Source: Aliterella atlantica CENA595
GTDB lineage: Bacteria > Cyanobacteriota > Cyanobacteriia > Cyanobacteriales > Chroococcidiopsidaceae
Assembly (NCBI RefSeq): GCF_000952155.1
Contig: NZ_JYON01000006.1
Coordinates: forward strand, 2,833-26,832
DNA: 24,000 nt
Direction of reading: 5' to 3'
In this document: in pieces, positions 1,375 to 24,000 of the stretch
Layout of the letters: each line of letters opens with the position of its first letter
How positions within the stretch are numbered: the stretch's first letter is position 1
Made by a program: the position numbers and the translations under genes
The notes under the pieces: generated by a model
Seen by the model: the letters and a program-made list of their open reading frames with translations, nothing else
Database searches by the model: none
What the model was told of the DNA's origin: nothing

Positions 1375-1424
1375 AAAAAGTCTCAACCAACTCTCCCCCT
1401 TTACTGTCTGCGTCCTCTGCGTAC

Positions 1425-1464: not shown

Positions 1465-1495
1465 TCCTCTGCAGTTCGTTTTTCCAAACACATTA

Positions 1496-2761: not shown

Positions 2762-2796
2762 CGCGAATTACTCTTGTCGTTAACTTGGTAGCTGAG

Positions 2797-6265: not shown

Positions 6266-6294
6266 CAGGCTGTTTGTAGTAACAGCTTAACAGT

Positions 6295-7897: not shown

Positions 7898-9856
7898 ATG
7901 CTGGAACAAGGCACGATCAGTATCCATACTGAAAATATCTTCCCAATCATCAAGAAGTCTCTCTACTCAGACCACGAAATTTTCTTACGAGAACTGGTTT
8001 CCAACGCCGTAGATGCCATCGAAAAAGTAAAAATGGTATCCCGCGCCGGAGAATACAACAGCGAGATAGGAGAGCCAGAAATTGCGATAACCGTAGATAA
8101 AGAACAAAAAACGCTAGCGATCGCAGATAATGGCATCGGGATGACAGCCGAAGAGGTGAAAAAGTACATCAACCAAGTAGCCTTTTCCAGTGCTGAAGAA
8201 TTCGTGAAAAAGTACGAAGGCAAATCAGATAGAGCAATTATCGGTCACTTTGGGCTAGGATTCTACTCATCCTTCATGGTGGCACAACAAGTCGAAATCG
8301 ATACCCTATCATACAAAGAAGGCTCTTCAGCAGTGCGCTGGACTTGTGACGGTTCGCCAGAATTTCGTTTAGAAGATTCATCTCGTACCCAGCGCGGTAC
8401 GACAATTACGCTAACGCTACAAGAAGAAGAACTAGAATACCTAGAACCAGCACGCATCCGCCAGTTAATCAAAACCTACTGCGACTTTCTCCCCGTACCA
8501 ATCAAACTCGAAGGCGAGGTTATTAACCGCCAAAAAGCACCTTGGCGCGAATCTCCTAGTAGCCTGACAAAAGAAGATTACTTAGAGTTTTACCGCTACC
8601 TGTATCCATTCCAAGATGAACCTTTGTTGTGGGTACACCTAAATACTGACTATCCCTTTATCCTCAACGGTATCCTTTACTTTCCCAAATTAGTACCGGA
8701 TGTAGACGTTACCAAAGGACAAATCAAACTATTTTGCAACCAAGTATTTGTCAGCGAACATTGTGAAGAAATTATCCCCAAATTTCTCCTACCAATGCGG
8801 GGAGTAATTGACAGTACCGATATTCCGCTCAACGTATCGCGTAGCGCTCTGCAAACCGATCGCACAGTCCGTAAAATAGCTGATTATATTGCCCGAAAAG
8901 TAGGCGATAGGCTCAAAGAACTCTACCGTGACAATCGCCAAGAATACATTAGTAGCTGGCAAGATATCGGCACATTCGTCAAATTCGGCGCTCTCAACGA
9001 CGAAAAGTTCAAAAAACAAATTGAAGACATCATTATCTATCGCACCACTTACGAGGCGAAAACAGAGACTCCAGCAGTTGAAGTTCAATCGCAAGAGGGC
9101 GATGCATGGCAAGATGTTTCTGCTGCGCCTAGCCTTCCCTACACCACAATTAAGGAATACTTAGAGCGCAACAAAGAGCGTCACGAAAACCGAGTATTCT
9201 ACTGTACCAATGAAGCGACTCAAGCAACCTACATCGAACTGCACAAGCAGCAGGGTTTAGAAGTCCTATTTATGGACTCATTTATCGATACTCACTTTAT
9301 CTCCTTTTTGGAGCAAGAATACGCCAACGTCAAATTCTCCCGCGTCGATTCCGAATTGGATGAAAGTCTTTTAGAAAAAGATAAAGCAGGGGAAATAGTC
9401 GATCCGAAAACAAATAAAACTCGCAGCGAACTAATTAAGGAGTTATTCGAGCAAGCTATCAACAAACCCAAAGTCAACATCCGCACCGAAGCACTAAAAT
9501 CTGATAATCCTCAAGGTTCGCCACCTGCGATCGTATTATTACCAGAATTTCTGCGCCGGATGCGCGATATGAGCGCGATGATGCAGCAGCAAACAGCGCA
9601 GTTTCCAGAGGAGCATATTTTGCTTGTCAATACGACTCACCCCTTGATTCAAAACTTAGTCAGTTTAAGCGAAGGTGGGATATTGCAAGGCGATAGCAAG
9701 TCGCCATCAGCAGAACTTGCAAACCTAATTTGCCATCACGTCTACGATTTGGCACTAATGGCACAAAAAGGCTTTGATGCGGAAGGAATGACAGCCTTTG
9801 TCGAACGCTCGAACCAAGTGCTGACAAGGCTTACCGAACGCGCTGCAAGTAGCTAG
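7898..9856 (+). CDS. htpG: Molecular chaperone HtpG (Hsp90)
   Basis: 652-aa ORF. GHKL ATPase N-terminal motifs are IFLRELVSNAVDAIEK, DNGIGMT and GHFGLGFYS. Hsp90 middle and C-terminal blocks include LNVSRSALQ. Confidence 0.97.
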   Translation: MLEQGTISIHTENIFPIIKKSLYSDHEIFLRELVSNAVDAIEKVKMVSRAGEYNSEIGEPEIAITVDKEQKTLAIADNGIGMTAEEVKKYINQVAFSSAEEFVKKYEGKSDRAIIGHFGLGFYSSFMVAQQVEIDTLSYKEGSSAVRWTCDGSPEFRLEDSSRTQRGTTITLTLQEEELEYLEPARIRQLIKTYCDFLPVPIKLEGEVINRQKAPWRESPSSLTKEDYLEFYRYLYPFQDEPLLWVHLNTDYPFILNGILYFPKLVPDVDVTKGQIKLFCNQVFVSEHCEEIIPKFLLPMRGVIDSTDIPLNVSRSALQTDRTVRKIADYIARKVGDRLKELYRDNRQEYISSWQDIGTFVKFGALNDEKFKKQIEDIIIYRTTYEAKTETPAVEVQSQEGDAWQDVSAAPSLPYTTIKEYLERNKERHENRVFYCTNEATQATYIELHKQQGLEVLFMDSFIDTHFISFLEQEYANVKFSRVDSELDESLLEKDKAGEIVDPKTNKTRSELIKELFEQAINKPKVNIRTEALKSDNPQGSPPAIVLLPEFLRRMRDMSAMMQQQTAQFPEEHILLVNTTHPLIQNLVSLSEGGILQGDSKSPSAELANLICHHVYDLALMAQKGFDAEGMTAFVERSNQVLTRLTERAASS

Positions 9857-10416: not shown

Positions 10417-11029
10417 TTAAGATTGCTGCTCAAAAGCCTGTTTTACTGCCTCTAAATCTATACATAGTTGTTGGGCAATTTGCTCCACACTCATTCCTGC
10501 TTGCAACAGCAGAGGTACTGCTGCCAGTTTACCTTCTTTACGACCTTGCTCTAATCCTTGCTCTAGTCCTTGCTCTAGTCCTTGCTCTAGTCCTTCTTCT
10601 AAAGCCTCTTGGTAAACTTTAGTCTGCTTGAGTTCGCTTAATCCCAACATTTGTTCAATCTCCTGCCTGCTCAAGTTTGGAAACTTATAGACAAATACTG
10701 TTTCTACTAATTCTACAATTTTTCGCTGTTCGGCAGCATCTTTTAGTTCCTGTCTAGTTCTGCTAATTAGCTGTCTTGCTTGCTGCTGGGCAACATTTTC
10801 CTTAACGCCAATTAGTTGTAGCACTCCTAACCCTAGTGAGGCGCTAGCTATTTGTGTTGATAGCTCATCTAAATAGATGCGCTGCAAGCGAGGACTATTG
10901 GCAAAGTCTTGATACTGTGGTGGTAATCCTGGATCTAAACGACGTTTGGTGAATATTAGGATTCCTCGCCAGTCGTTTACAGGTTTATAGTCGTTCAAGT
11001 ACAAGAAGATTTCGCTAAAAAAGCTGGGG
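10417..11029 (-). CDS. Exon 2 of an intron-split Rpn-family (DUF2887/DUF4351-like) nuclease or putative transposase
   Basis: After the predicted 3' splice site (11030|11029) the frame reads ..PSFFSEIFLYLNDYKPVNDWRGILIF.. and continues to a C-terminal EQGL-repeat/helical tail typical of DUF4351. The first ~34 codons of the 237-aa track ORF (11030-11130) are intron domains V/VI, not coding sequence. Confidence 0.75.
10545..10596 (-). repeat. In-frame 12-nt tandem repeat (about 4.3 copies) encoding (GLEQ)n
   Basis: The plus strand reads CCTTGCTCTAAT, then CCTTGCTCTAGT three times, then CCTT. This translates on the minus strand to GLEQGLEQGLEQGLEQG. Confidence 0.85.
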
Positions 11030-11032
11030 ATT

Positions 11033-11104
11033 AAAGTCAGTGAAGGAGTCGCCCCCTCCACTGCTCTCCAAAACGGAACGTGATAGTTTCCGATCATTCC
11101 GCTC
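11033..11104 (-). ncRNA. Group II intron domains V and VI (catalytic hairpin and branch-site hairpin)
   Basis: Domain V is GAGCGGAAUGAUCG-GAAA-CUAUCA-CG-UUCCGUUU. It is 34 nt with an AGC triad, a 2-nt CG bulge on the 3' strand and a GAAA tetraloop. Domain VI has a 4-bp basal helix (AGAG/CUUU), bulged A 11037, an 11-bp upper helix (CAGUGGAGGGG/CUCCUUCACUG) and a GCGA loop. Confidence 0.8.
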
Positions 11105-11126
11105 CTCAGTAGTACGGTTGTTGTCA

Positions 11127-12941
11127 TCAATACGTCATTACCAACATATCGTCTTCCCAGGTAAACTTATCTGGAAATCCTGGTGGCTTTGGCTTAACAC
11201 TATTACAGTTAGATTTTGTACCATAACTGCCGTCAGTGGCAGTCTTTTTGTCGTGGCAGTGTCGATGGAGTAGTTGCCAATTGTTATACGAATTCTTACC
11301 ACCCAATGATGTCGGAATTATGTGGTCGACTTCTATCGGCTCTCCGTATGTAAAGTAGTTTTTGCAGTGGGCGCATTTTCCCTTTTGCCGCTTGAGTAGG
11401 GTTGCTATTCTTGCGGGGGTCTGTGGGTGCGTTCCCCTTCTTGAACTCCAATATAGCCAGTTTCCGTCATAAGGCGATGAATTACCTTTCACTTTGACAT
11501 GACGGGTAATTTCTGTTGAGTTATGTGGAATGAGTGTTAGGGAATTATTACCTTCCTTAGTAGCAAACGTCCAATTGTTGCCTTGTACTGTTTTAAAGTA
11601 TTTACGGCTTGTCCAACTTCTACCTTTTTTTCGATGACGGCGGCGACCCCATTTAAGCAGTTTCCAGAAAGACAAATGCCATAACCTTTTAAAGGTTTTA
11701 TGACTGGAGACAGTTGAAAAGTAGTTACACCAACCCCTTATAATTGGGCTTAGTATCTTGATTAAGGTTGCTTGGTCTAATCCCCGCGACCTATTTATTA
11801 TTCCAGCTATCTTTCTGTAGTGCCTTTTCTGGCTCTCCTTACTGGGGGTGATAATAGTTTTAAACCCTAGTAATCCGCCTCTATGACTACCTGATTGATA
11901 TTTGCCAACAGGGAATTGTTTGATGTTGAATCCGAGAAAATTAAACCCCGATTCTGTATCACCAAATTCATTCAGGGTGTGAGCGATTCTTGTTTTACTA
12001 GGTTTTAATTCTAACCCAATGCCGTTTAACCACTTTTCTATCTCTGTTTTACACAAATTTACTACTTCTATGTCTTTATGGAGAACAACGAAGTCGTCTG
12101 CGTATCTAACAAATGTAATCGATTTAAGCTTATCTCTAACACTCAATTGAGTGAAATCTGGTCGCTTCATATCTAATTTTGGGGCTAGACCCATGATTAG
12201 TTCTTCGATTCCATGTAGGGCGACGTTTGCCAGCAGGGGTGAGATAACTCCTCCTTGGGGCGTGCCTTCATTAGTAGGGAACAACTGTCTCCCATCCATT
12301 ACACCAGCTTTTAACCAAGCTCGGATTTGTCTTTGCAGGGTGGGATAGGTATTTAGTTTTGAGAGAAGTACATCGTGGTTGATGCGGTCGAAGCATTTAC
12401 TGATGTCGGCATCCAAGACGTACTTGGCTTTTTTATTTACCGCAATGTATATTGCTCCAATTGCATCATGGCATGAGCGTCCAGGGCGGAACCCGTAGGA
12501 ATTTGGTTCAAATCGCGCTTCCCATTCTGGCTCCATTGCCATTTTGACTAGCGCTTGCAAGGCTCGGTCGTACATTGTCGGTATTCCTAATGGTCTTTTT
12601 TCCTCACTTCCTGGTTTGGGTATCCAAACTCGGCGTGTTGGTCTGACCTTTGTCCCCAGTTTGATTTTATTCATTAGGGTGAGACGTTGCTTTGGGGATA
12701 GTGCCTTAACACCGTCCACTCCTGCCGTCTTCTTACCTTGATTGTCCTGAGTTACCCGACGAACCGATAATGCTCTTGCCGCCCAAGAACTTATCAATAA
12801 TTTCTGGAGTCTGCGAACTAGCTTGACGTTTCCACGACTAGACGCTTGGTATATCCGCTTTTGCAACTTAAAGACGCTACGTTCCAGCTTTTGCCAGTTG
12901 ATATCGCTCCATTCATACATCGGACATGATGCCGTGTTCAT
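11127..12941 (-). CDS. Group II intron-encoded protein: reverse transcriptase, maturase (X) domain and HNH endonuclease
   Basis: 604-aa ORF. RT blocks include the YADDFVV catalytic motif. The maturase region contains RGWCNYF. The C-terminal HNH region reads CAHCKNYF...VDHIIP...NNWQLLHRHCHDKKT. Confidence 0.95.
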   Translation of the reverse strand: MNTASCPMYEWSDINWQKLERSVFKLQKRIYQASSRGNVKLVRRLQKLLISSWAARALSVRRVTQDNQGKKTAGVDGVKALSPKQRLTLMNKIKLGTKVRPTRRVWIPKPGSEEKRPLGIPTMYDRALQALVKMAMEPEWEARFEPNSYGFRPGRSCHDAIGAIYIAVNKKAKYVLDADISKCFDRINHDVLLSKLNTYPTLQRQIRAWLKAGVMDGRQLFPTNEGTPQGGVISPLLANVALHGIEELIMGLAPKLDMKRPDFTQLSVRDKLKSITFVRYADDFVVLHKDIEVVNLCKTEIEKWLNGIGLELKPSKTRIAHTLNEFGDTESGFNFLGFNIKQFPVGKYQSGSHRGGLLGFKTIITPSKESQKRHYRKIAGIINRSRGLDQATLIKILSPIIRGWCNYFSTVSSHKTFKRLWHLSFWKLLKWGRRRHRKKGRSWTSRKYFKTVQGNNWTFATKEGNNSLTLIPHNSTEITRHVKVKGNSSPYDGNWLYWSSRRGTHPQTPARIATLLKRQKGKCAHCKNYFTYGEPIEVDHIIPTSLGGKNSYNNWQLLHRHCHDKKTATDGSYGTKSNCNSVKPKPPGFPDKFTWEDDMLVMTY

Positions 12942-13606
12942 AACTTATGCATTGCTACTTGTAGCTATACCTTCCGTATTACCGTGAGTCTGTTAGCTTA
13001 TCCTGGTTATTACAACTAGGCGTTTGCTTCTGACTCGATCTTTCCATTCCGTTACCTGACTTGTGCCAGATTTTTCGTCTTAGCTGACTGCTCGAAGTAT
13101 TCGACCTCTTCGAGAGTAGACGGATTGGTTACTTCGTTCCTCATTACCTTTGGTTTGTTCCGTTAGGATGTCATCTCTTCACCGAGCTTTTGGGTAACGT
13201 AGGTATGTCGGTTGGTAATCCTCATACCACCTTTTGCTTCTGCCCTTTTGGGACTTCCAGCGCGTATAGCCTTATTTCGCTGGTTCGGCGTAACGATGAT
13301 TCACACAATGACTTTGCTTTCGCTATCCATAGGAACTTGCTTACGGGATACCACTTTTAGGCTAGTAGCTCTTTTCCGCTTTTATCCCCGCTTCACCGAT
13401 TGAGGGCTAGTCGCTACAGTGGGGGATATGCTTTCACTCCTACGTCTGGAGGACAGGACTTGACGCTTTCTAGGATACTAACGCTCACCTGCAAGGTTAT
13501 GAAGTTATCATTTGCAAGGGATTAAAGTGCGAACTCAATCCTGTTGGATTACCCTACAAATGTCGCCCATCCCCCGATTTATCGGTTTCGAGCGAACGAA
13601 TCGCAC

Positions 13607-13836
13607 TACAAGTCGCCTTTTGTGTCTCGATAGCCTTGAATTTCCAGGAAATATATTGGTAAGTCGGTGGCATAAATAGGCGGAACTAAAATACCATCAA
13701 TCCGAAAGCTAGTCTGTTTGACTTCTTGGGATGCAAAACTGTAAGTTGATGTTCTCGGCGAATCGTTGCCGATGAGTTCAAATAGAATAGCGGGGTAAAG
13801 TTGAAACAGTTCGTAAAATAAGCTGTCTGTCTGCAC
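13607..13836 (-). CDS. Exon 1 of the intron-split Rpn-family (DUF2887-like) nuclease or putative transposase
   Basis: MQTDSLFYELFQLYPAILFELIGN...VKQTSFRIDGILVP...PIYFLEIQ matches the N-terminal pattern of cyanobacterial DUF2887/Rpn proteins as I recall it. The apparent TAG stop (13608-13606) spans the exon-intron junction (TA|G). Splicing gives TA|C, which is Tyr, in frame with exon 2. The spliced product is 280 aa. Confidence 0.75.
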
Positions 13837-13889
13837 TCTTAGTTCGGTGGCTGCACTTAATGAAAGTAAGATTCATTTTAGGGCTAAGA

Positions 13890-14254
13890 GCGATCGCGCT
13901 ATAGTGAAATCCCCACTTGAGTTATAAAAAAGCGATCGCTCTTAGTTTTGGTATGATCGCGCCTCAGTAAAATCTCAACTTAAACCACAAATAAGCGATC
14001 GCACTTTAGTGAAATCTCAACTTGAACCACAAAAAGGCGATCGCGCTTAAGTCAAATCTCAACTTGAGCCACAAACAAGCGATCGCTCTTGGCATTGGTA
14101 AAAGCGATCGCGCTTCAGTAAAATCTCAACTTAAACTACAAAAAGGCGATCGCGCTTATGTGAAATCTCAACTTAAACTACAACAAAGCGATCGCTCCTG
14201 GTATTGTTAAAAGCGATCGCGCTTCAGTGAAATCTCGACTTGAGCCGCAATACA
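13890..14254. repeat. Tandem array of seven 42-bp units plus three 23-25-bp short units, each starting with HIP1 (GCGATCGC)
   Basis: Long-unit consensus is GCGATCGCGCTTCAGTGAAATCTCAACTTGAACCACAAAAAG. Long units start at 13890, ~13953 (degenerate HIP1), 13995, 14037, 14104, 14146 and 14213. Short units (GCGATCGCTCTTGGCATTGGTAAAA-like) start at 13932, 14079 and 14188. Units are contiguous with no unique spacers. Confidence 0.9.
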
Positions 14255-14680: not shown

Positions 14681-15256
14681 ATGAATAAAAACTTACTAAT
14701 GCTAGGAGGGCAAAAAGCGAAAAATAATGAGGGATTTACCCTAATTGAATTATTAGTAATTATATCTTTAATAGGTATTATGGCTGCATTTAGTGCGCCT
14801 TATATAAATTTTGGAGTTAACCCATTAAAAGATACTACTAATAGAGTTGCAAGCACCTTTAAACTGATGCGCGTTAAAGCAATGTCTCAAACTTCTGCTT
14901 ATCGGATCAAGCAAGCTACCTCAACTACGTTGAAAATAGAACGTAATAAATTGTGTTCTGATTCAACTGGTTGGACTGTAGATGGTAGCTTTGATTCAGA
15001 AGATTTAACTTTAACCGAAGCCAAAGATTTCAAAGGGGCAGCTAAAAATACTGTTATCGAAATTATAGCCGCAACTGAAAATAGTTCAAACATTACGCCT
15101 TTGATAGAGGCGACAGGTTCGCCAGGCTGGAGCCTTTGTTTCAATAGTAGGGGATTAGCAAATAAAACTTTAAAACTTACTATAAAAGATTTAAAAACTG
15201 CTAAAACGAAAGATATTGAGATATTTCAAGGAGGCGGAGTTCAAATTTATGAATAA
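14681..15256 (+). CDS. Prepilin-type minor pilin/pseudopilin, GspH/FimT(FimU)-like
   Basis: 191 aa. The leader MNKNLLMLGGQKAKNNEG is followed by FTLIELLVIISLIGIMAA, the class III signal G|FTLxE with a hydrophobic helix. It is the first gene of a four-gene pilin-like operon. Confidence 0.8.
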   Translation: MNKNLLMLGGQKAKNNEGFTLIELLVIISLIGIMAAFSAPYINFGVNPLKDTTNRVASTFKLMRVKAMSQTSAYRIKQATSTTLKIERNKLCSDSTGWTVDGSFDSEDLTLTEAKDFKGAAKNTVIEIIAATENSSNITPLIEATGSPGWSLCFNSRGLANKTLKLTIKDLKTAKTKDIEIFQGGGVQIYE

Positions 15257-15716
15257 AATTTTTGCTGGTAAAAATCAAGGGCTGTCATTGGTAGAAGCAT
15301 TAGTAGGAATGACAATTTTCTTGATTACTTTGGCATTCATGATTCCTTTACTTGCAACCAATCAATTTAATACAATCAATAGAGAAATCAAGACAGGAGC
15401 TATTTCTGTCTCGCAAAGAATTCTAGACGAGTTCCGCCAATCTCTAGACCAGCTACCCGCAGATGAGTGGGCAACAAAATTACCATTATCAGGAACAGAG
15501 ACTAAGTTACCTTTACCCTACCCCTCTGGCACTGATATTTCATCCATAACAGAGCTTGGTAAAACTTATAGCGCAAAAATTATTTATTGCGAGGTTATTT
15601 CTCCTGCTACTACTAATCCTAACTGTGATGCCAATACTAGACAAATAAAATTACAAGTGAACTACAATGGTCAACCGATTTATACTGTTGAAACAATTTA
15701 CACAAAGTTCCAATAA
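15249..15716 (+). CDS. Prepilin-type minor pilin, PilV-like
   Basis: The track ORF starts at 15216. ATG 15249 gives MNKIFAGKNQG|LSLVEALVGMTIFLITLAF, a prepilin signal with Glu at +5. This start overlaps the upstream stop codon by 8 nt, which suggests translational coupling. Confidence 0.7.
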   Translation: MNKIFAGKNQGLSLVEALVGMTIFLITLAFMIPLLATNQFNTINREIKTGAISVSQRILDEFRQSLDQLPADEWATKLPLSGTETKLPLPYPSGTDISSITELGKTYSAKIIYCEVISPATTNPNCDANTRQIKLQVNYNGQPIYTVETIYTKFQ

Positions 15717-16800
15717 AGGTTTTACACTACTGGAACTTTTGGTCACTTTAGTTGTAGCCTCAGTTATAACTGGGTTGGCACTCAAACTAATAGTCGATCA
15801 GCGCCAACTCTTTTTAAACGATCAAAGCCGTACTCAAGTTAATCAAAACTTACGAGCTTCTCTAGATTTAGTCGGTGCTGATATTAAACAAGCTGGCGAA
15901 CGACTAACAACAAGTACATTGCCAGTAGTGAGAGTCATAAATGGATCTGCGACCGATCCTAATGTTCCTGATGAGCTAGTATTGCAGCGTTTAGTCATTG
16001 CTGAAAGCCTACCAGTTTGTAAGACAGTTACTACTGGTACTACGACAAGTGAAATAGAAGTCTCTCAAAAAGGCGGTGCTGGATTGTGCAATGCCTCTTT
16101 TTCTAGTCCTACAGCCACTTTGCCTATTACCCTTAACCAGTGGAAAGATAGCCGTTGTGCTAAAGATGGTACTTCTGCTTGCGCCAGAGCTATAGATGTA
16201 AATCGCGCTACAGTCAGCAATCGATGTGTTGAGGAAAAGGATGGTACTGACAAAGAGTGCGTATGGGCTTATATTTACGATCCTGATACTAATCGAGGTG
16301 AGTTTTTCCTTTACGGTTTTGAAAGTCCTAAAGACACTCCAGATACGCCTACTAACGCTTATCGCGTGCATCGGGTTGATGGTGAAGCTTGGAAAAATAC
16401 ATACCCCTATGGTGTCCTGAGTTCTACTAATCCCACTAATCCTACTCTCTACATTTTGGAGCAGCGCCGCTATCGATTAAAAGACAATGTTTTAGAGTTA
16501 ATTCTTAATGAACAAATACCACCTCCATCTAAATCTACATCTGATTTTTTAGTTGACAACCAAACATCACCAATAAGACTTGTTAACCAACTAAGTAATT
16601 TTCAAGTAAAAGCTTTGATGCAAAGTGGCAACACACCACTTACTAGAGAAGATTTTAACAACACAGCTATTGACGACTGGAAGCAACTTAAAGCAATCAA
16701 GATAGATGTAACAGCTATAAACCCAGCACCTAATTCTACTAAAGTTCCTAACCTTACCGTATCTGCACAGTTTTTCCCACGCAACGTTTCTTCTAAGTAA
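15667..16800 (+). CDS. Prepilin-type minor pilin, PilW-like
   Basis: 377 aa. The leader MVNRFILLKQFTQSSNKG is followed by FTLLELLVTLVVASVITGLALKLIVDQRQLF...NLRASLDLVGADIKQAG, a PilW-like pattern. With this start it overlaps the upstream gene by 50 nt. A later TTG start is possible. Confidence 0.75.
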   Translation: MVNRFILLKQFTQSSNKGFTLLELLVTLVVASVITGLALKLIVDQRQLFLNDQSRTQVNQNLRASLDLVGADIKQAGERLTTSTLPVVRVINGSATDPNVPDELVLQRLVIAESLPVCKTVTTGTTTSEIEVSQKGGAGLCNASFSSPTATLPITLNQWKDSRCAKDGTSACARAIDVNRATVSNRCVEEKDGTDKECVWAYIYDPDTNRGEFFLYGFESPKDTPDTPTNAYRVHRVDGEAWKNTYPYGVLSSTNPTNPTLYILEQRRYRLKDNVLELILNEQIPPPSKSTSDFLVDNQTSPIRLVNQLSNFQVKALMQSGNTPLTREDFNNTAIDDWKQLKAIKIDVTAINPAPNSTKVPNLTVSAQFFPRNVSSK

Positions 16801-16811
16801 CAGATAAATTT

Positions 16812-19127
16812 ATGAAATACCAATATAAAAATTTTCAACAATTAATGCTGCTGAGGCTGGTGCGCTTACAAAAATATAACCATGAAGAATCAGGTTTTGT
16901 GCTAGTTATTGTAATTTCTATGGTGTTGATCCTGACATCTTTGCTAGCAGCCTACGGCTTACTTAGCAAAATTGAAACAGCAAGCACTAAATCTTCTGTG
17001 ACTAGCAACACAGGGTTTTATGCAGCAGAGGCTGGGCTTAACCTACGAGCTAAACAGGTTCGAGACAAATTTAATGGATTCAATCGTCCTACTGGCACTC
17101 CTCCTGGAACTGCCCCTGAATACCTTGATGCTTTACAAAAGTGTTTAAGTAATACTGGTAGTTTAGGCAGTGGTGATTTCATCTGTAAGCGCCAAACTTT
17201 TAACAACCAAGAATTATTAAGCTACGTCATTGAACATCCAGATAATTTTGACCCTACAAAAAATATTATACAGATTAATTCTGGCGAACCTTTTGCTGGC
17301 TTGAGCGCTCAAGAATATCGTTACGATGTTACATCAGTAGCACTCAATTCTCAGGAGCCAAGTGCCATACTAGGAATGCGTTTCAAAAGCCGATTGATAC
17401 CACTGTTTCAATTTGTTGTTTTCTACAACAATGACGCAGAATTTACTGTGCCACCAGATATGAACTTAAATGGTCCTATTCACAGTAACGGTGATTTGTA
17501 TCTAAACGTTGGTAACAGTCGTATTTTGACAATTAATGGTGTAGTTAGTACAGCAGGCAAATTATATCGTGGCGAGAAGGTAGCATCGCAATGTGGGGGT
17601 AAAGTTAATATCTATACGGTTCTTGACTCTGTATCTAGTATCAAAGAGCTTAGTTGTGGTAGTGGCAGAACTGAGTACACTCAAAGTCAAGTCAGTGATT
17701 GGAAGAAAAATATTCTTGTTACCGTCCCTAAATTAGAGGTTCCTGAACCTGATGCCTTAGATGCTAAAGCAGGAAAAGATTATTGGGACAAAGCAGACCT
17801 ACGAATTGTGCTTAAACTTGACTCTTCTAGTGGCAATCCAAGCGGTATTGAAATACGCAATCAAGATAAATCGGTAGACACGACGAAAACGAAAGCCCTT
17901 CTAGAGAGTTGCCCTACTAACACCACCACTACAACACTTAGAAATGAGTTAGATGGTACATCTAACTACGAGCAAAGTGACGTTGACCTGATAGTCAATT
18001 CAATTACTGGTTTTGCGGTTGGTAATGTAGTAAGAGTAGGAAATGATTATGATAGCAATATTATTACCAGTATAAATCCATTAACTAATACAATTAGATT
18101 GAAAAGGAGGCTAGGACACACTTATCAATCAGCTACTGTAGCCTCGAAAGATGACATCGTTAGTAAAGTGAGCGTCTCTACATCTAATACATTCTACAAT
18201 TATCGAGAAAAAAATGGAGGTACGACAGGCAATGATGGTACGTACATTCGTATGCTCAATGTTGACGTTCGAGGTCTGTTGGACTGTATTCATTCACAAA
18301 GTTTAATGGGTAGTAAAGCCTTGAATGATGTTACTGAAAACGGTTTAGTCTGGTTTCTGACTGTAGATGGACCTAATTCAGAAACAGATGTAAACTCTAG
18401 TACGGCTCCTAATAACTCCAATAATTATGCTGTACGCCTTTACAACGGTGACTATTTATATTCAGGTCAAAGTGGTGCACCAGAAATTAAAGGTTTGACG
18501 ATTGTTTCAGACCAAGCAGTATATATTCAAGGTAACTACAATCTTAAAGATGACTCAACAACTACTGGTATTAACGAAGGTGATAACTTAGCCACTACTA
18601 CTGTTACTGAAAGGTGGAGACCAGCCTCAATCCTTGCTGACACAATTAATATTCTCTCCAAAAAATGGCAATTAGATGATTCCAATGGTCGGACATATAG
18701 TACAAGTAATGTACCGTCAGGCACAATTCAATATGATGATTCTAGACGAACTGCTGAAGAAACAACCGTTAATGCAGCATTCTTGTCTGGAACCACAATT
18801 ACAGGTGGTAAAAATGGTACAGATGGTCAAGACAAGGGTAGCAATAGCAATAGTGGAGGTGTGAATAACTATCCTCGATTCCACGAACATTGGAATGGTA
18901 CTGTTAAATTTAACTATAAAGGGTCGTTTGTAAGTCTCAATGCACCGCGTCGCACTAATTCGCCATTCTGCGGTAGCTATGATGCAACCAACTGCAATAT
19001 TTATAGTCCTCCACAGCGTAACTGGGACTTCGATTCTGACTTCAAGAATGCTGCTAACCTACCACCACTTGCTCCTAGGTTTGTCTATTTAAGGCAGGAG
19101 GTTTTTTCTCGTAGCTTTGAGCGATAA
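16812..19127 (+). CDS. Large PilX-N-terminal-domain pilus-associated protein (771 aa)
   Basis: The N-terminus ..EESGFVLVIVISMVLILTSLLAAYGLL...FYAAEAGL resembles the PilX N-terminal domain and has no Glu at +5. The large C-terminal region is Thr/Asn-rich. It is the fourth gene of the pilin set and starts 11 nt after the PilW-like stop codon. Confidence 0.7.
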   Translation: MKYQYKNFQQLMLLRLVRLQKYNHEESGFVLVIVISMVLILTSLLAAYGLLSKIETASTKSSVTSNTGFYAAEAGLNLRAKQVRDKFNGFNRPTGTPPGTAPEYLDALQKCLSNTGSLGSGDFICKRQTFNNQELLSYVIEHPDNFDPTKNIIQINSGEPFAGLSAQEYRYDVTSVALNSQEPSAILGMRFKSRLIPLFQFVVFYNNDAEFTVPPDMNLNGPIHSNGDLYLNVGNSRILTINGVVSTAGKLYRGEKVASQCGGKVNIYTVLDSVSSIKELSCGSGRTEYTQSQVSDWKKNILVTVPKLEVPEPDALDAKAGKDYWDKADLRIVLKLDSSSGNPSGIEIRNQDKSVDTTKTKALLESCPTNTTTTTLRNELDGTSNYEQSDVDLIVNSITGFAVGNVVRVGNDYDSNIITSINPLTNTIRLKRRLGHTYQSATVASKDDIVSKVSVSTSNTFYNYREKNGGTTGNDGTYIRMLNVDVRGLLDCIHSQSLMGSKALNDVTENGLVWFLTVDGPNSETDVNSSTAPNNSNNYAVRLYNGDYLYSGQSGAPEIKGLTIVSDQAVYIQGNYNLKDDSTTTGINEGDNLATTTVTERWRPASILADTINILSKKWQLDDSNGRTYSTSNVPSGTIQYDDSRRTAEETTVNAAFLSGTTITGGKNGTDGQDKGSNSNSGGVNNYPRFHEHWNGTVKFNYKGSFVSLNAPRRTNSPFCGSYDATNCNIYSPPQRNWDFDSDFKNAANLPPLAPRFVYLRQEVFSRSFER

Positions 19128-19172
19128 TCACTTTTATAACGCCAGCCGTTCAGTAAAATCATTAACCTTGTA

Positions 19173-19216
19173 AAAGAAGGACTTGTCTAATAAAAACAAG
19201 TCCTTCTTTGCTTTTG
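19173..19216 (+). terminator. Rho-independent terminator after the PilX-like gene
   Basis: AAAGAAGGACTTGT (19173-19186) and ACAAGTCCTTCTTT (19196-19209) form a perfect 14-bp stem with a 9-nt loop. GCTTTTG follows. Confidence 0.7.
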
Positions 19217-19368
19217 CCTACTACCAAACTCAAAGCTAAAGTATAACTACGCTCAATGTTTAAGATTGAAGTCATTATTTATACCTTCAAACAGCAAGAT
19301 TTCCTACTAACATAGGTAATATATATCGTAGTTCACTATAGAGCCTAGCTCTTTGTAGGAAAGCAGTC

Positions 19369-22300
19369 ATGTCCAGCCGCAAGCAACGTCGGGTAGTTCA
19401 GAAGCGCGATCGCCAAATTTGGCAACTATCCGCTACAAACTGTAAACAGCATACGTCATGGCTGCTACGCTGCTCAATACTTAGCGATAAAAACTCCCAT
19501 TCATCTGGCTTCGTCTTGCCAACTGTAGCAATGGTGTCGCTAGTAGTCGTACTAATAACTACTGCGCTCGTATTGCGGGCTTTTGATCGCTCCAGAGAGG
19601 CTAGTAATGTCAGGGTAGATGCCGCAGTATCAAATGCTGCAAAACCTGGCATAGATCGCGCTAGAGCCAAAATAGATGCATTATTATCCGATCCGAGTTT
19701 GCCAAGAGACACTCCCACTGATACCGATTTTTACAATGCCCTGACTAGCAGCAGGTATGTATTAGGTGATGAAACACGCCTGAAACTGGTTTACGACATC
19801 AATAACAATAAAATTATTGAAAAACGACCTACAGCAACAACTCTAGAACAAGACGAAGCGATCGCAACTGCTTGGAAATTTCCAGTTGATACTGACAATA
19901 ATGGTAAATTCGATAGCTATACACTATACAGTATTGTCTTCCGCAGTCCCAACCGAGGACAAGATGGTAGGTTTGAGCGCTCTAGAAATCCTCTAGAAGC
20001 AAGAACTCCACCAATGAAAGGTGCGCTGAGTAGACGCTGCGAATATACTGCTGGTACTAGCCCTAACTTGGTAGGTGACTCTAGTTGGTACAAATCAGGT
20101 AGTAACCTAACCAAAAGCTTTTTTGCCTACACTGCCACAGTGCCAATTGATACTCTGCCTATATCTCCCAATGTAGGTGCTGGCAACTATGAAGTGTATA
20201 GAGGAAATCGAGGTTTTTCTGCCCTGGAGTTTCAGCAAGATCGCAGTAGAGTTCCCCTAAATAGCAATGCTGTTTTGTTTCAAAACGACCTGGAACTTAC
20301 TCCTGGTGTTGACTTTCGCATGAATGGCAGAATTTTTACAAATGCCAACTTACTGATCGGCGGGCATGAGGGTAAAGCGATTAGGCTCTATCAAATTAGT
20401 AGCAAAAACTCCTGCTTTTACAAAGAACAAAACAGTAAAATTACTGTCGGTGGCAACGTCGGTACAGGCAACGTAGCCGACGCACAAAATCAAACAGCGG
20501 TAACTGTCGATCTATTTAGAGGAGTAGGTAACGACCCAAGTACCTCCACAATCGATGGCAATAATAAATCTACAAGCGAAGTAGGAGGCAAAAGAGTAGG
20601 ATACAACGATGCCGCCTATAGCAAGCGGATCGGGGCAATGAAGCAGGCTATGCTAGCTTTTTCTACAACTAATCCTCCCACAGTTGCCAGCGTCAATAGC
20701 ATTACTCAGTACCCTTTTTCAGTTAAAGCAGCATTTAAAGCTAAGATTGAAGCACCTGGAGGTAGCAGCTTAAACGCTCAAGAAATTCTTGCCGAACAAG
20801 TTGAAACATACCTAAAAGATCGTACCCGTCGCGTTCCTTTTGCTGAAGTACCTGCCGCCGATGGGACAGGTGCTATTCTTCCAGGGGATAGCAATGGGAT
20901 TGATACAAGCTCTGGGATTGTAGAACCAATCGCTAAATGGCGAGAGCCTACAGACACTAATACTGGTTTAGCGCTAATTGCAGCCAACCTACAACAGACT
21001 CAGCCCGAACAGCAGAGAGAAGATGGTGTAGAGACATACTTAGGCGATCGCATTAATGTAGGTAACAACTTACCTGCTTACTGGAAAAATCTGACTAAAT
21101 ATGTTACAGGACCTTTTGAAAAGCAATTTTTAGGCAGCGCGGTTAAATGGACTAATCCTAGCGACGAAGAACGCTATCGAACTACTCAAGTAGTCGCTCT
21201 CCCAGATGTAGGTATATCTAATCGAGATGGTTTTTGGGAAGATGCAGCCGCTAGACAACCAGCAACTAAATTATCTAATGTAGGCGGTTTGAGGATAATA
21301 ACTGGGGCAGGAATTTATCGCAACTTAGCATCTACTTATACAGCTTTATCTGCTCCGTCTTTTCTTCCACTCCCTCCTACCATCCTTGATGGCAATAGAG
21401 CTATTCCTAATGCTCCACTTTTAGCAGGTGAAAGCTCATCTATTCCCTACACTTTAGTTTGGTCTGACACCATGCCTATGAGTGGTGGAGTCGATAACAG
21501 CAAAACACTAATCAATGAAAGTACAGCGCCAGCCGACTTGCGGATGAGAGCTACGGCTGTTTATCACTATGCAAACAATCCTGGAACTAGCCAGACTCCG
21601 ATCGCTTGTGTCAGCAGCTATTACGATCCGACAAACGCAACTACTGCTAAAAATAGAGTTAATTTTGATGGTGGATACGGCATCGATACTGCTAGCGGTA
21701 AGTCAAACAATGGTGTTGTCTATCCTACTCCCTACACCAGCGATACAGATAGGTTTAGTGCGATCGCCTCTTATTTGCCAGAGTTGAAAGCTCAAGCAAA
21801 ACTGATGTTTCCCAATGGGCGCGTCGTTAACGAACCTTTGCAGCAAGCCTTGCTCAAACTTAATGGTGGTGGCGGACTATTAGACAATACCAAACCCCTA
21901 AGTTTGGCGGAAAATTCAGCAATCGATACAGCTATTTGCGGTATCAAAATTTTGACCGATAGCTCCTTCAATCCCAGCACAGAGCCTATAGTGCCACATG
22001 GCGCAATTAGAGAAGCATCTTTTCTTAATGCTAGAGAAGTTCAAGCGATTCATAAGACGAATAATACGACTGACTACGATTTAGAACTAGAACAACGCCA
22101 GCCTTTAGAAGTACGAGTGACTGACCTCGATATGGGTCAACTTGCAGCTAAAACAATTGGGACAGCAAACCTTCAAGAATATCTTTTGCCTAACAGCGGT
22201 ATTATCTATGCTAGTCGAGACGATGCGCTGCTCGATCTAAGTGACACGAGCATAGAAAGAGAGTTACTTAGTTCTACCGACTTCAAACTCGACCCTACAC

Positions 22301-24000
22301 GCCGCCCAAACGGAATTAGGCTAATCAACGGTAGTAGTTTAGAACGAGATGATGATTATCGAGAAGAAGAAAAGGGACTAACTTTAGTTACCAATTTGCC
22401 AGCTTATATTCAAGGCGACTTTAACCTGCACCAACAGTCAGGCGATCGCACGCCTACTGAAGAATTTACCGATACCTTGGCAGATAACTGGAGCGATTTT
22501 TATACACGCAACCCAACACTCGATCCTAATTTTGCTTGTCGTAAGGGGCAAAGTGGGTGTGGTGGTAATGGCGATCGCTGGCGACCTGCAACTATCATCT
22601 CTGATGCCATGACGGTGCTATCAGGCAGTTTCCGCGATGGTTTCCGTGATGAAGGAGACTACGATCTCAATAACTATGCAGGTATTGCTCCTACTTTAAA
22701 TCGCACTAAAAACGGCTTGTGGAACAATAGCTTTGTTCCTAGTGCCTTATGGTGGGATACAGGCAATACAGACAATGCTTATCCTAATGAAAAAACTGAG
22801 GATAGTTATGTAGGTTCCTACCTAACTAATGCCGTGACACCGATCCAACGGCGCGTAAATGCACCTGAATATGTCATGGAAATTTGCCGTAAAGTCCCTG
22901 TCTCCGAATGTAGACCGAGCGATTGGCTAGTTGGCTACGATAATAACGGCGATGGAGATATCGATGATAATGGGGAAAGCGATGTTAAATCTGCAAATCT
23001 GCCCCAAAACGCTGATGTTACTCGCTTAGGTGCAGGTACTACTGCTAGCGCTGCTTTGCGACCTAGCGATCGCCGTTACGCTCGTCGGGTTGCATTCAAA
23101 CGTAGCACTGGCAATACACTAGAGTTATCTAATTGGTCTAGCCCTAACGAAGATAATATCACTCCAATAGCATTAGGAATAAATAATAGCGGTCAAGTTG
23201 CTGAATTTCCTTATACAGAAAATGTTCTGCCCAGAATAAGAAATAATGCTCTGTGGTTTAGAACAACAACTAATACTATTGGCGAACCATACAACAATCC
23301 TAGCTACGCAAACAATAGACCGCTAGCATATACAGGCAATACTAAATTTACGTCTCCTCTTACCCCTGAAATTGACAACGTAAATAGTCTCAACCTTCCA
23401 GAGAATAACCCTGCTTCTAGCTACACAGTTTGTACTAAAACTGCTGGTTCCTCTCAAAAACCGTTAGTCAATGATTCCACGCTTCTTGATGACGGAAATT
23501 GCGATCTTGACACAACCGTAGGGCAGCTAAATGCTTTAGATCCTAGTACATCTAATACAGATGCGATCGTTACACCTAGTCAAAAGGTAACTAATCAAAA
23601 GGGAAGCTTTGCTAGCGGGGAGGAAACAACTCTCACCCAGAGTGGTCGTATAAACGTTATCGATTTAGGCCTTGGAGCGCGGACTTTAGGAGAGGATAGT
23701 ACGAGAGTAACAACAATTAAATTAGTAGGCGATGAAGACTCTATATTTGTGTTCCAAAAAAAAGGAGGAATCTTAAACTTTGCTAGCAATTCAAATTGTA
23801 GCCGTCGTAACAATACCTGCACCCGCAAAGGTGTAGCTATTGAACTAGATGGGGTTGATCCTAACAATGTATTCTGGGCATTAAATGCAGATACTCAATG
23901 GAACGAAGTAGATTCTAACAGCCCTCATAGAATGAAGGGGAATTTTATTAGTAAAGGGGCTGTTAATAGTCTCAAAAATGTAGTGATAGAGGGTCGTCTT
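19369..24000 (+). CDS. Giant pilin-anchored protein, 5' partial in this window (more than 1544 codons, continues past 24000); possible HpsA (hormogonium polysaccharide) family
   Basis: This ORF is not in the supplied track. I read the frame beginning at ATG 19369 codon by codon to 24000 and found no TAA, TAG or TGA. An upstream in-frame TAG is at 19339-19341. Only short shadow ORFs lie on other frames across these 4.6 kb. A 47-aa basic leader is followed by G|FVLPTVAMVSLVVVLITTALVL. The HpsA assignment rests on my recollection of that family's N-terminus and is unverified. Confidence 0.8.
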   Translation, partial: MSSRKQRRVVQKRDRQIWQLSATNCKQHTSWLLRCSILSDKNSHSSGFVLPTVAMVSLVVVLITTALVLRAFDRSREASNVRVDAAVSNAAKPGIDRARAKIDALLSDPSLPRDTPTDTDFYNALTSSRYVLGDETRLKLVYDINNNKIIEKRPTATTLEQDEAIATAWKFPVDTDNNGKFDSYTLYSIVFRSPNRGQDGRFERSRNPLEARTPPMKGALSRRCEYTAGTSPNLVGDSSWYKSGSNLTKSFFAYTATVPIDTLPISPNVGAGNYEVYRGNRGFSALEFQQDRSRVPLNSNAVLFQNDLELTPGVDFRMNGRIFTNANLLIGGHEGKAIRLYQISSKNSCFYKEQNSKITVGGNVGTGNVADAQNQTAVTVDLFRGVGNDPSTSTIDGNNKSTSEVGGKRVGYNDAAYSKRIGAMKQAMLAFSTTNPPTVASVNSITQYPFSVKAAFKAKIEAPGGSSLNAQEILAEQVETYLKDRTRRVPFAEVPAADGTGAILPGDSNGIDTSSGIVEPIAKWREPTDTNTGLALIAANLQQTQPEQQREDGVETYLGDRINVGNNLPAYWKNLTKYVTGPFEKQFLGSAVKWTNPSDEERYRTTQVVALPDVGISNRDGFWEDAAARQPATKLSNVGGLRIITGAGIYRNLASTYTALSAPSFLPLPPTILDGNRAIPNAPLLAGESSSIPYTLVWSDTMPMSGGVDNSKTLINESTAPADLRMRATAVYHYANNPGTSQTPIACVSSYYDPTNATTAKNRVNFDGGYGIDTASGKSNNGVVYPTPYTSDTDRFSAIASYLPELKAQAKLMFPNGRVVNEPLQQALLKLNGGGGLLDNTKPLSLAENSAIDTAICGIKILTDSSFNPSTEPIVPHGAIREASFLNAREVQAIHKTNNTTDYDLELEQRQPLEVRVTDLDMGQLAAKTIGTANLQEYLLPNSGIIYASRDDALLDLSDTSIERELLSSTDFKLDPTRRPNGIRLINGSSLERDDDYREEEKGLTLVTNLPAYIQGDFNLHQQSGDRTPTEEFTDTLADNWSDFYTRNPTLDPNFACRKGQSGCGGNGDRWRPATIISDAMTVLSGSFRDGFRDEGDYDLNNYAGIAPTLNRTKNGLWNNSFVPSALWWDTGNTDNAYPNEKTEDSYVGSYLTNAVTPIQRRVNAPEYVMEICRKVPVSECRPSDWLVGYDNNGDGDIDDNGESDVKSANLPQNADVTRLGAGTTASAALRPSDRRYARRVAFKRSTGNTLELSNWSSPNEDNITPIALGINNSGQVAEFPYTENVLPRIRNNALWFRTTTNTIGEPYNNPSYANNRPLAYTGNTKFTSPLTPEIDNVNSLNLPENNPASSYTVCTKTAGSSQKPLVNDSTLLDDGNCDLDTTVGQLNALDPSTSNTDAIVTPSQKVTNQKGSFASGEETTLTQSGRINVIDLGLGARTLGEDSTRVTTIKLVGDEDSIFVFQKKGGILNFASNSNCSRRNNTCTRKGVAIELDGVDPNNVFWALNADTQWNEVDSNSPHRMKGNFISKGAVNSLKNVVIEGRL

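Follow-up and report, generated by a model that had tools for sequence, protein, structure and literature searches.

What relationship exists between two very large proteins that are encoded side by side and on the same strand in a cyanobacterium? The window analysed here, a stretch of 24,000 nucleotides from Aliterella atlantica CENA595, contains the gene for a PilX-like protein of 771 amino acids and, downstream of it, most of the gene for a giant protein. The original prediction, read directly from the translations, held that the two are paralogues with a common N-terminal anchor and three motifs (A, B, and C) in the same order. The claim stands, in the broad sense of paralogy: the two proteins are homologous over the N-terminal anchor and a set of ordered core blocks. 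The features to which the argument refers are given below; a slash within a motif marks the prepilin-like site.

14681 to 15256, +: FimT/GspH-like minor pilin of 191 aa, first gene of the cassette, with the prepilin motif G/FTLIE (Glu5 present)
15216 to 15716, +: PilV-like minor pilin, second gene of the cassette, listed as an open reading frame of 166 aa from a TTG codon (N_methyl E = 3.3e-4)
15667 to 16800, +: PilW-like minor pilin of 377 aa, third gene of the cassette, with the motif G/FTLLE (N_methyl 28.7 bits)
16812 to 19127, +: PilX-type tip minor pilin of 771 aa (PilA12/Slr2018-like, 'PilX-EPS' type), assigned from AF2, Foldseek, the HpsA HMM, and BLASTP
16890 to 16943, +: anchor SG/FVLVIVISMVLILTSL of the 771-aa protein, a prepilin-like G/F site with Ile and not Glu at +5
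17415 to 17504, +: motif A (aa 202-231) in the 771-aa protein, which holds the earliest of the short strands that follow the pilin sheet
18492 to 18659, +: motifs B (18492-18545) and C (18612-18659) of the 771-aa protein, aa 561-616, from translation match, hhalign, and BLASTP
18753 to 19097, +: block D of the 771-aa protein, aa 648-762 (NNYPRFHEHW...KGSFVSL...PPQRNWDFD...), from hhalign, running into the last long beta-strand
19173 to 19209, +: 14-bp hairpin with a T-rich tail between the 771-aa gene and hpsA, from RNA folding
19369 to 24000, +: 5' part of hpsA, 1544 of 1782 codons inside the window, from the NF038301 EPS_HpsA equivalog
19504 to 19557, +: anchor SG/FVLPTVAMVSLVVVLI of HpsA, a G/F site with Thr and not Glu at +5
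20269 to 20358, +: motif A of HpsA, aa 301-330, from hhalign
22375 to 22623, +: motifs B (22375-22428) and C (22576-22623) of HpsA, aa 1003-1085, from translation match, BLASTP, and hhalign

Gene order around the two large proteins

The 771-aa gene is the fourth member of a FimT-PilV-PilW-PilX minor-pilin cassette (14681 to 19127) and lies directly downstream of three prepilin genes that have Glu5. The FimT/GspH-like protein matches Pfam N_methyl with 28.3 bits, GspH with E = 0.011, and TIGR01708 (GspH) with E = 1.1e-7, while the N-terminus of the PilW-like protein matches HpsC, GspJ, and PRK10557. The real start of the PilV-like gene is likely to be the ATG at 15249 (MNKIFAGKNQG/LSLVE). The same order of four genes is found in most of 80 related loci. 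Between the cassette and hpsA, the intergenic hairpin has a folding energy of -19.6 kcal/mol (z = -5.75) and none of 200 shuffled sequences folds as well; it is probably an intrinsic terminator that separates the two gene sets. A consensus terminator scan did not call this hairpin, probably because its loop is 9 nt and the limit of the scan is 8.

The giant protein is identified by its sequence as HpsA. The part encoded in the window reaches 1590.6 bits against NF038301 (cut-off 400) and covers model positions 2-1324 of 1503, the protein being partial here; at full length (P0121) it has 1782 amino acids. A stretch at aa 1444-1548 resembles ice-binding domains at a score under the threshold. 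The HpsA of Nostoc punctiforme (P0213) is among the homologues, and the closest named relatives are from Chroococcus, Gloeocapsa, and Gloeocapsopsis. None of these three genera is, to our knowledge, a hormogonium former.

The two gene sets also adjoin in two metagenomic relatives (contigs L081 and L082), where a PilX set with a large protein of 760 or 715 aa is located directly upstream of hpsA-hpsB-hpsC and a third prepilin gene. The genes that follow hpsA in these contigs encode HpsB (257.7 bits, cut-off 150), HpsC (351.7 bits, cut-off 200), and a prepilin of 222 aa, which is hpsD by position. In Aliterella the region where hpsB-D would be expected lies past the end of the window, and the order of HpsB-D is known from these relatives.

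Sequence blocks common to the two large proteins

At the N-terminus, the 771-aa protein reads SG/FVLVI, with Gly at -1 and a hydrophobic helix but without Glu at +5. HpsA reads SG/FVLPT, and G47, F48, L50, P51, and T52 are nearly invariant among 26 HpsA sequences. A G/F anchor with a hydrophobic residue or Thr at +5 is kept in both large proteins and in their families. The absence of Glu5 is a hallmark of the subunit that tops the priming complex and cannot accept a further subunit above it. The Pfam PilX_N model (PF14341) gives 11 bits for the 771-aa protein (E = 0.44), under the cut-off of 25.5, and no match for HpsA; precomputed annotation places PF14341 in some other members of the 771-aa family (P0246 and P0313).

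All eight of the peptides on which the original prediction was built occur in the translations. The anchors and motifs B and C lie exactly where they had been placed, and motif A falls inside the slightly wider ranges first given. The three BLASTP high-scoring pairs between the two proteins are collinear, and the profile blocks come in the same order in both. Motifs A and B are 1077 nt apart in the 771-aa gene and 2106 nt apart in hpsA, in agreement with the earlier figures of about 1 kb and about 2 kb.

How strong is this similarity? BLASTP of the 771-aa protein against HpsA gives 42.4 bits over motifs B and C (E = 2e-7), 35.0 bits over motif A (E = 3e-5), and 27.3 bits over the anchor (E = 0.006). 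In 300 shuffled versions of the 771-aa protein, the best pair had a mean of 20.3 bits (sd 2.1) and a maximum of 29.6, and the second-best stayed at or below 23.5 bits; two of the three real pairs therefore score above every shuffle. Profile-profile comparison was carried out with hhalign, segment by segment, on family alignments of 30 sequences (A1) and 26 sequences (A2); local alignments of segments were used in place of runs at low mact, which forced near-global alignments. The anchors align with 65% probability (E = 6e-5), motif A with 96.2% (E = 2.4e-9), and motifs B and C with 97.9% (E = 3.2e-13). A fourth common block, block D, joins residues 648-762 of the 771-aa protein to residues 1607-1739 of HpsA (97.4%, E = 1e-11). 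In HpsA this block lies past the end of the window and so was invisible to the original prediction. For residues 321-520, in the middle of the 771-aa protein, segment-wise hhalign finds nothing equivalent in HpsA.

The signatures RWRPA, YIQGxxNL, and NxxRFxExW...KGSF...PPxRxWxFD occur once in each protein, and hhalign -alt finds no second copy of the motifs within either one. The same blocks are conserved in the 80 loci, which span many phyla. The NF038301 model also recognises the 771-aa protein, in four stretches (71.7 bits, E = 2.6e-20); given the cut-off of 400, this marks it as a homologue and not as an HpsA.

A DUF7305-type PilX-like protein of 473 aa, encoded in contigs L081 and L082, was considered as a third member and rejected because it has only the anchor in common with the two others. 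The relationship between the 771-aa and HpsA families is therefore a specific one.

Predicted structure and comparison with known proteins

Do the two proteins share a fold? The AF2 model of the 771-aa protein (pLDDT 81.1, pTM 0.80) has a long helix (29-87), a sheet (126-197), many strands of three to five residues, and a final long strand (756-769); the strands of motif A are at 203-205, 217-220, 223-225, and 229-231. As modelled, the protein is a pilin helix and sheet with a large beta-rich insert. In the architecture described for PilX-EPS proteins, a beta-solenoid is placed between the penultimate and last strands of the pilin sheet (10.64898/2026.02.12.705559), and the DSSP string of the model is compatible with such an arrangement. 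HpsA residues 1-1200 were modelled poorly (pLDDT 57, pTM 0.41), and Foldseek with this model returned nothing significant, the top match being ComZ at E = 0.3. The proposal of a common core fold with large insertions thus holds for the insertions, which are present in HpsA, while the fold itself is seen structurally for the 771-aa protein only.

Among the nearest known proteins is PilA12/Slr2018 of Synechocystis, 773 aa long, in which a PilX_N domain is present and position +5 is hydrophobic (Oeser et al., preprint, 10.1101/2020.12.15.422378). Like the 771-aa protein, it is encoded by the fourth gene after three prepilins, combines a pilin fold with a large beta-rich insert, and is homologous to HpsA. 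The comparison was made through the protein in the Slr2018 position of Synechocystis salina (P0274, 785 aa), not with Slr2018 of PCC 6803 itself. The gene for P0274 follows three small genes and precedes an ABC transporter, with a Crp regulator upstream, which is the layout of pilA9-slr2019. BLASTP aligns the 771-aa protein with P0274 at E = 3e-48 and 1e-39, leaving its middle (about aa 364-502) unaligned. At the level of sequence and gene order, the 771-aa protein is homologous and syntenic to this protein. The loci differ downstream: the pilA9-12 locus of Synechocystis has an slr2019-like ABC transporter, whereas the neighbour of the 771-aa gene in the window is hpsA.

The HpsA of Nostoc punctiforme (NF038301), encoded in the hps locus hpsA-K, provides a second point of comparison. 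The giant protein of the window is a full member of that family, and the 771-aa protein has the anchor and blocks A-D but lacks about 1000 residues of HpsA-specific insertions, which lie at about aa 371-977 and 1100-1606 of HpsA, as well as the ice-binding-like stretch. The 771-aa protein also resembles the PilX/GspK-type capping pilins of Proteobacteria, in that its gene belongs to a set of FimU/T-PilV-PilW type and Glu5 is missing, although its match to Pfam PilX_N is under threshold. In Proteobacteria, however, PilX is a small protein and PilY1 a distinct one that is not a pilin, whereas in the 771-aa protein the pilin itself carries the bulky domain. By analogy with the proposal in 10.64898/2026.02.12.705559, this domain would be located at the tip in the role of a plug or adhesin, as is the PilY1 tip adhesin.

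Could the 771-aa protein instead be a competence-type, ComZ-like DNA-binding tip pilin, related to HpsA only in the generic way of large PilX proteins? ComZ, the competence-associated tip pilin of Thermus thermophilus (PDB 6QVI), which is a pilin fold bearing a large beta-solenoid (10.64898/2026.02.12.705559), is the sole significant Foldseek match of the 771-aa model in the PDB (E = 1.4e-7, probability 0.99), with low TM-scores (0.18 and 0.24) and an rmsd of 18.5. Full-length homologues of the 771-aa protein are also found in four-gene cassettes of Thermus, Meiothermus, and other Deinococcota, and the preprint that introduced the EPS and Com labels states that they imply no strict functional separation (10.64898/2026.02.12.705559). 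However, ComZ (the smaller protein, its crystal chains having 507-518 residues) has no detectable sequence similarity to the 771-aa protein; searches of the PDB with both family profiles and with the homologue from Thermus igniterrae gave no meaningful match to a solved structure, ComZ included. The homology and synteny with the S. salina protein point to the pilA9-12 operon, which serves motility and not competence (10.64898/2026.02.12.705559; 10.1101/2020.12.15.422378). Moreover, the relatives have a separate DUF7305-type PilX-like set without the HpsA motifs, which is the likelier competence-type set. A competence-type identity for the 771-aa protein is therefore unlikely.

Distribution of the two families and proposed function of the gene sets

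Have the two genes arisen by a recent local duplication, in which the 771-aa gene was copied and inflated into HpsA, or HpsA was copied and shrunk? They are adjacent and on the same strand, and the adjacency recurs in L081 and L082, but in the 80 genome loci with a member of the 771-aa family, HpsA is never a neighbour. Recent duplication is also difficult to reconcile with the profile scores: the HpsA profile gives 62-79 bits for members from Thermus and Hyphomicrobiales, against about 16-60 for cyanobacterial members (from other genomes), and the NCBIfam HpsA model gives 92.5 bits for Thermus and 71.7 for the 771-aa protein of the window. Furthermore, the probable terminator lies between the genes, and the two have separate sets of three partner pilins, those of HpsA being HpsB-D as seen in the relatives. 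A recent tandem duplication is thus very improbable, and the split between the two families appears to be old.

Convergence, meaning that unrelated beta-solenoid or beta-helix proteins with biased, repetitive rungs (N/G/T-rich turns and alternating hydrophobic residues) have come to share short motifs by chance or structural constraint, might account for block identities of just 27-36%, the unmatched middle third of the 771-aa protein, and the low-confidence model of HpsA, but is the least credible reading of all in view of an anchor and four blocks in one order, scores beyond all shuffles and profile E-values down to 3e-13, motifs that are not internal repeats, and conservation in 80 loci of many phyla.

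The best explanation, which is very probably correct, is that the window holds two adjoining type IV pilus minor-pilin gene sets, and that the cap in each comes from a single family of very large tip pilins of PilX type. The first (14681 to 19127) would comprise the FimT-like, PilV-like, PilW-like, and 771-aa PilX proteins, in the order of pilA9-pilA12 (slr2015-slr2018) in Synechocystis. The second would open with hpsA at 19369, to be followed, as in relatives, by the pseudopilins hpsB and hpsC and a third prepilin. Both large proteins would consist of a prepilin-like G/F site and a hydrophobic helix without Glu5, then a pilin sheet, then a beta-rich domain in which motifs A, B, and C and the C-terminal block D are the conserved parts. 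In HpsA this scaffold would have gained about 330 residues between A and B and about 500 between C and D, the ice-binding-like stretch included. Judging from the literature, the three partners of each large protein may prime a pilus or pseudopilus whose tip that protein caps and 'plugs'; once there, it may be an adhesin or a module for polysaccharide binding. Of the two sets, that of the 771-aa protein would serve motility-type pili, and HpsA-D would work in secreting or handling the motility polysaccharide.

The link between HpsA and PilX-type minor pilins, which the original prediction also drew, is correct, but it has already been described. Schuergers et al. (bioRxiv, February 2026, 10.64898/2026.02.12.705559) grouped HpsA-like proteins and Synechocystis PilA12/Slr2018 as a 'PilX-EPS' subfamily, homologous to HpsA and proposed to act as a tip plug or adhesin. 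The window is therefore mainly an independent confirmation, obtained from sequence alone. To this it adds a natural example of both family members adjoining, each with partner pilins of its own (those of HpsA as seen in relatives), the fourth conserved block at the C-terminus, the age of the split, and the spread of the shorter family beyond cyanobacteria. The 771-aa family and its cassette are found in Cyanobacteria, Deinococcota (Thermus, Meiothermus, and Trueperaceae), Bdellovibrionota, Gemmatimonadota, Binatia, Thermodesulfobacteriota and other 'delta' lineages, Margulisiibacteriota, and a Hyphomicrobiales MAG. The preprint covers cyanobacteria alone, and links Thermus solely through the architecture of ComZ (10.64898/2026.02.12.705559).

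It is an evenly balanced proposal that the scaffold of anchor and blocks A-D represents a pan-bacterial 'giant PilX' family of tip pilins, which travels as a fixed FimT-PilV-PilW-PilX cassette and generally takes the place of PilY1 in these phyla; HpsA would then be a cyanobacteria-specific inflation that has recruited polysaccharide-binding or ice-binding-like modules. Annotations long presented HpsA as a hypothetical membrane protein in the hormogonium polysaccharide system (e.g., PMC6495340). Its place alongside the pseudopilins HpsB-D makes sense if HpsA is an inflated PilX-type tip pilin, and the same reading points to a dedicated pilus or pseudopilus, capped by HpsA, for handling motility slime.

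Two large pilin-like proteins in neighbouring gene sets

Five consecutive plus-strand genes run from 14681 to the end of the window:

14681 onwards, plus strand, gene 1: 191-aa prepilin with GspH/FimT-like matches
gene 2, plus strand: 166-aa prepilin with prepilin motif
gene 3, plus strand: 377-aa prepilin with prepilin motif
16812-19127, plus strand, gene 4: PilX-type protein of 771 aa
19369 to beyond the window end, plus strand, gene 5: hpsA, a very long ORF matching NF038301

The three small proteins all have canonical prepilin motifs, G|F(L)xLxE, with Pfam N_methyl matches, and also match the NCBIfam GspH, PilV/ComGE and HpsC/GspJ N-terminal models. By its score against the NCBIfam equivalog NF038301 (1590.6 bits, cut-off 400), the long ORF is HpsA; the full-length protein in the database (P0121) has 1782 aa. 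A spacer of 241 nt separates the 771-aa gene from hpsA. It contains a hairpin with a T-rich tail (19173-19209; 14-bp perfect stem, 9-nt loop; -19.6 kcal/mol, z = -5.75), which suggests that the two genes belong to separate transcription units. This hairpin was not called by a consensus terminator scan, probably because its 9-nt loop exceeds the 8-nt limit of the scan.

Are the two large proteins related? The original prediction described them as paralogues sharing an anchor and three ordered motifs (A, B and C). All eight peptides on which it drew are present in the translations, six of them exactly where reported; the motif A peptides lie at 17415-17504 and 20269-20358, within the slightly wider ranges proposed. 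BLASTP finds three collinear HSPs, covering motifs B and C (42.4 bits, E = 2e-7), motif A (35.0 bits, E = 3e-5) and the anchor region (27.3 bits, E = 0.006). With 300 shuffled versions of the 771-aa protein, the top HSP had a mean of 20.3 and a maximum of 29.6 bits, and the second-best reached at most 23.5. Independently, the curated HpsA model matches the 771-aa protein in four stretches (E = 2.6e-20). Default profile-profile comparison of 30 homologues of the 771-aa protein (alignment A1) with 26 HpsA proteins (A2) aligned the B+C region at 97.1% probability (E = 5e-11), and a segment-wise comparison added a C-terminal segment, block D.

Segment-wise profile-profile comparison of the two families (residues in the 771-aa protein; residues in HpsA; probability; E-value)
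Anchor: 20-99; 39-118; 65%; 6e-5
Motif A: 162-257; 281-370; 96.2%; 2.4e-9
Motifs B+C: 536-630; 978-1099; 97.9%; 3.2e-13
Block D: 648-762; 1607-1739; 97.4%; 1e-11

Block D (NNYPRFHEHW...KGSFVSL...PPQRNWDFD in the 771-aa protein, NFVRFQENW...QGSFIQL...PPTRQWGFD in HpsA) had escaped the first reading because the HpsA C-terminus lies outside the window. Nothing in HpsA corresponded to residues 321-520 of the 771-aa protein in this comparison. Both N-termini contain S-G|F-V-L and lack Glu5, position +5 being occupied by Ile in the shorter protein and by Thr in HpsA; these anchor residues and a non-Glu +5 are conserved across both families. Taken together, the located peptides, the two HSPs that exceed every shuffled control, the profile matches and block D confirm that the paralogy was correctly read and is statistically solid, and extend it.

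In two metagenomic relatives (L081 and L082) the gene order is a PilX set with a protein of 760 or 715 aa, HpsA, HpsB, HpsC and a third prepilin, with scores above the NCBIfam cut-offs for HpsB and HpsC. Thus, each of the two large proteins comes with a separate trio of partner pilins. Upstream of the PilA12-like set, in divergent orientation, both contigs carry a third minor-pilin set (L081 1361-4004, L082 952-3646, minus strand), so that three sets are clustered; the window has an intron/DUF2887 region at this position. The DUF7305 PilX-like protein of the third set (473-477 aa) has an RG|FALP anchor and no HpsA motifs. It was rejected as a member of this subfamily, since the anchor is all that it shares; the 771-aa and HpsA families are therefore specifically related, and not merely both 'PilX-like'.

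Expansion of HpsA and age of the split

Judged by block coordinates, HpsA looks like a scaffold of the 771-aa type enlarged at three points: the N-terminal domain is longer by about 100 residues, the stretch from motif A to motif B by about 330, and that from motif C to block D by about 500. Within this last enlargement lies an ice-binding-like stretch (HpsA 1444-1548) that scores below threshold; Pfam Ice_binding (PF11999) is above threshold in some HpsA proteins. The proposal of a shared core fold with large insertions holds for the insertions and the sequence homology. For HpsA, the fold itself draws on sequence profiles and not on modelling, because the model of residues 1-1200 is poor (pLDDT 57) and Foldseek found nothing significant with it.

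On profile scores, the two families separated long ago. With an HMM trained on HpsA sequences, Thermus and Hyphomicrobiales members of the 771-aa family score 62-79 bits, which equals or exceeds what cyanobacterial members outside the window's genome reach, and the NCBIfam HpsA model scores a Thermus igniterrae protein at 92.5 bits versus 71.7 for the 771-aa protein. HpsA lies beside a 771-aa family gene in none of 80 genome loci. Two full-length HpsA paralogues occur a few genes apart in Gloeocapsa sp. PCC 7428 (Glo7428_2896, Glo7428_2901) and Gloeocapsopsis dulcis; HpsA has thus been duplicated in Chroococcidiopsidales, the clade closest to the window's organism.

A PilA12-like family within and beyond cyanobacteria

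Among the candidates scored, 624 database proteins belong to the family of the 771-aa protein (E <= 0.001). They are mostly 700-850 aa long and often labelled 'Tfp pilus assembly protein PilX' by JGI. Across species-representative genomes, a scan recovered full-length relatives both in cyanobacteria and far outside them:

Deinococcota: Thermus, Meiothermus, Trueperaceae and others
Bdellovibrionota and Oligoflexia
Gemmatimonadota and Binatia
Thermodesulfobacteriota and other 'deltaproteobacterial' MAGs
Margulisiibacteriota and one Hyphomicrobiales MAG

At most of the 80 loci, the large PilX gene is the last of a four-gene cassette (FimT-like, PilV-like, PilW-like, PilX).

The AF2 model of the 771-aa protein is good (pLDDT 81.1, pTM 0.80), with a helix at 29-87, a long-strand sheet at 126-197, a long run of 3-5-residue strands beginning exactly at motif A, and a final long strand at 756-769. 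Among solved structures, Foldseek finds one significant neighbour, ComZ, the tip pilin of Thermus thermophilus (6qvi; E = 1.4e-7, probability 0.99; global TM-scores low, 0.18 and 0.24), and no sequence-level match to ComZ or other solved structures was found for the family. The secondary-structure string and the ComZ match point to a predicted solenoid. Thermus and Meiothermus have a cassette of 153/125/299/603 aa (Thermus igniterrae locus L030, 8234-11800; also L041, L077 and L027). Its last protein in L030, a full-length homologue and the one scoring 92.5 bits, has no sequence similarity to crystallised ComZ; it may be either an orthologue of ComZ that has diverged or an additional tip pilin.

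Starting from a more distant cyanobacterial member of the family, a search retrieved a 785-aa Synechocystis salina protein (P0274), through which, rather than PCC 6803 Slr2018 itself, the comparison with Slr2018 was made. Three small genes precede it, an ABC transporter follows and a Crp-type regulator lies upstream, the layout of the published Synechocystis pilA9-pilA10-pilA11-slr2018-slr2019 locus. It aligns with the 771-aa protein over residues 1-363 (E = 3e-48) and 503-771 (E = 1e-39). According to its published description, Slr2018/PilA12 has 773 aa, a PilX_N domain and a hydrophobic +5 residue (10.1101/2020.12.15.422378). This synteny, alignment and description identify the 771-aa protein as a putative PilA12-like, PilX-type capping minor pilin.

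HpsA is still termed a hypothetical membrane protein in earlier papers (PMC6495340). Schuergers et al. (bioRxiv, 12 February 2026, 10.64898/2026.02.12.705559) sorted cyanobacterial pilins by predicted structure. All cyanobacterial PilX homologues had a pilin fold in which a beta-solenoid separates the penultimate strand from the last, an architecture shared by ComZ; a 'PilX-EPS' subfamily, including PilA12, has an expanded solenoid homologous to HpsA, and those HpsA-like proteins that were oversize for the AlphaFold database were placed in this cluster. The predicted link between HpsA and PilX was right, yet had been published already. The paralogy is known in substance, and the present pair is a clean example with a few extensions. 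Added here are statistical confirmation at this locus, the C-terminal block D, the specific exclusion of DUF7305-type PilX, the tandem minor-pilin sets (triple in relatives), the wide occurrence of the PilA12-like cassette outside cyanobacteria and evidence for its ancient split from HpsA.

Genomic setting and proposed roles

A group II intron appears to lie within a DUF2887 gene (10417-13836, minus strand):

10417-11130, minus strand: C-terminal part of the DUF2887 gene
11030-11106: Rfam Intron_gpII match, 47.9 bits
11127-12941, minus strand: 604-aa intron ORF with RVT_N, RVT_1, GIIM maturase and HNH domains
13606-13836: ORF that, from its translation, seems to encode the N-terminus of the DUF2887 protein

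Non-coding tandem repeats (13889-14250; 42-nt unit, higher-order periods 109 and 151, 81-89% matches) lie immediately upstream of the minor-pilin cassette, each unit with the cyanobacterial HIP1 palindrome GCGATCGC. Further upstream is a polysaccharide biosynthesis cluster (94-7131), which may have a connection with the polysaccharide on which the Hps system acts:

94-1374: Wzy/O-antigen ligase-like
1496-2761: Polysacc_synt_3 flippase
2785-3816: GT2 glycosyltransferase
4136-6265: BNR/sortilin-Vps10 repeat protein, 709 aa
6295-7131, minus strand: WecG/TagA-family transferase
7898-9856: htpG, next after the cluster

What might the two sets do? The 771-aa protein may act in motility, polysaccharide handling or DNA uptake; its resemblance to ComZ and its Thermus homologues keep competence among the possible roles. 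Beyond the homology, gene order, lack of Glu5 and predicted 771-aa fold demonstrated here, the type IV pilus literature suggests that a Glu5-less PilX subunit would sit atop a PilV-PilW-FimT priming complex and cap the filament. The cyanobacterial fused beta-solenoid has been proposed to take the place of proteobacterial PilY1 as plug and adhesin (10.64898/2026.02.12.705559). By analogy with Synechocystis pilA9-12, the first set in the window would prime motility-type pili, and the HpsA set, by analogy with Nostoc hpsA-D, a filament whose dedicated task would be to secrete or grip the motility polysaccharide.
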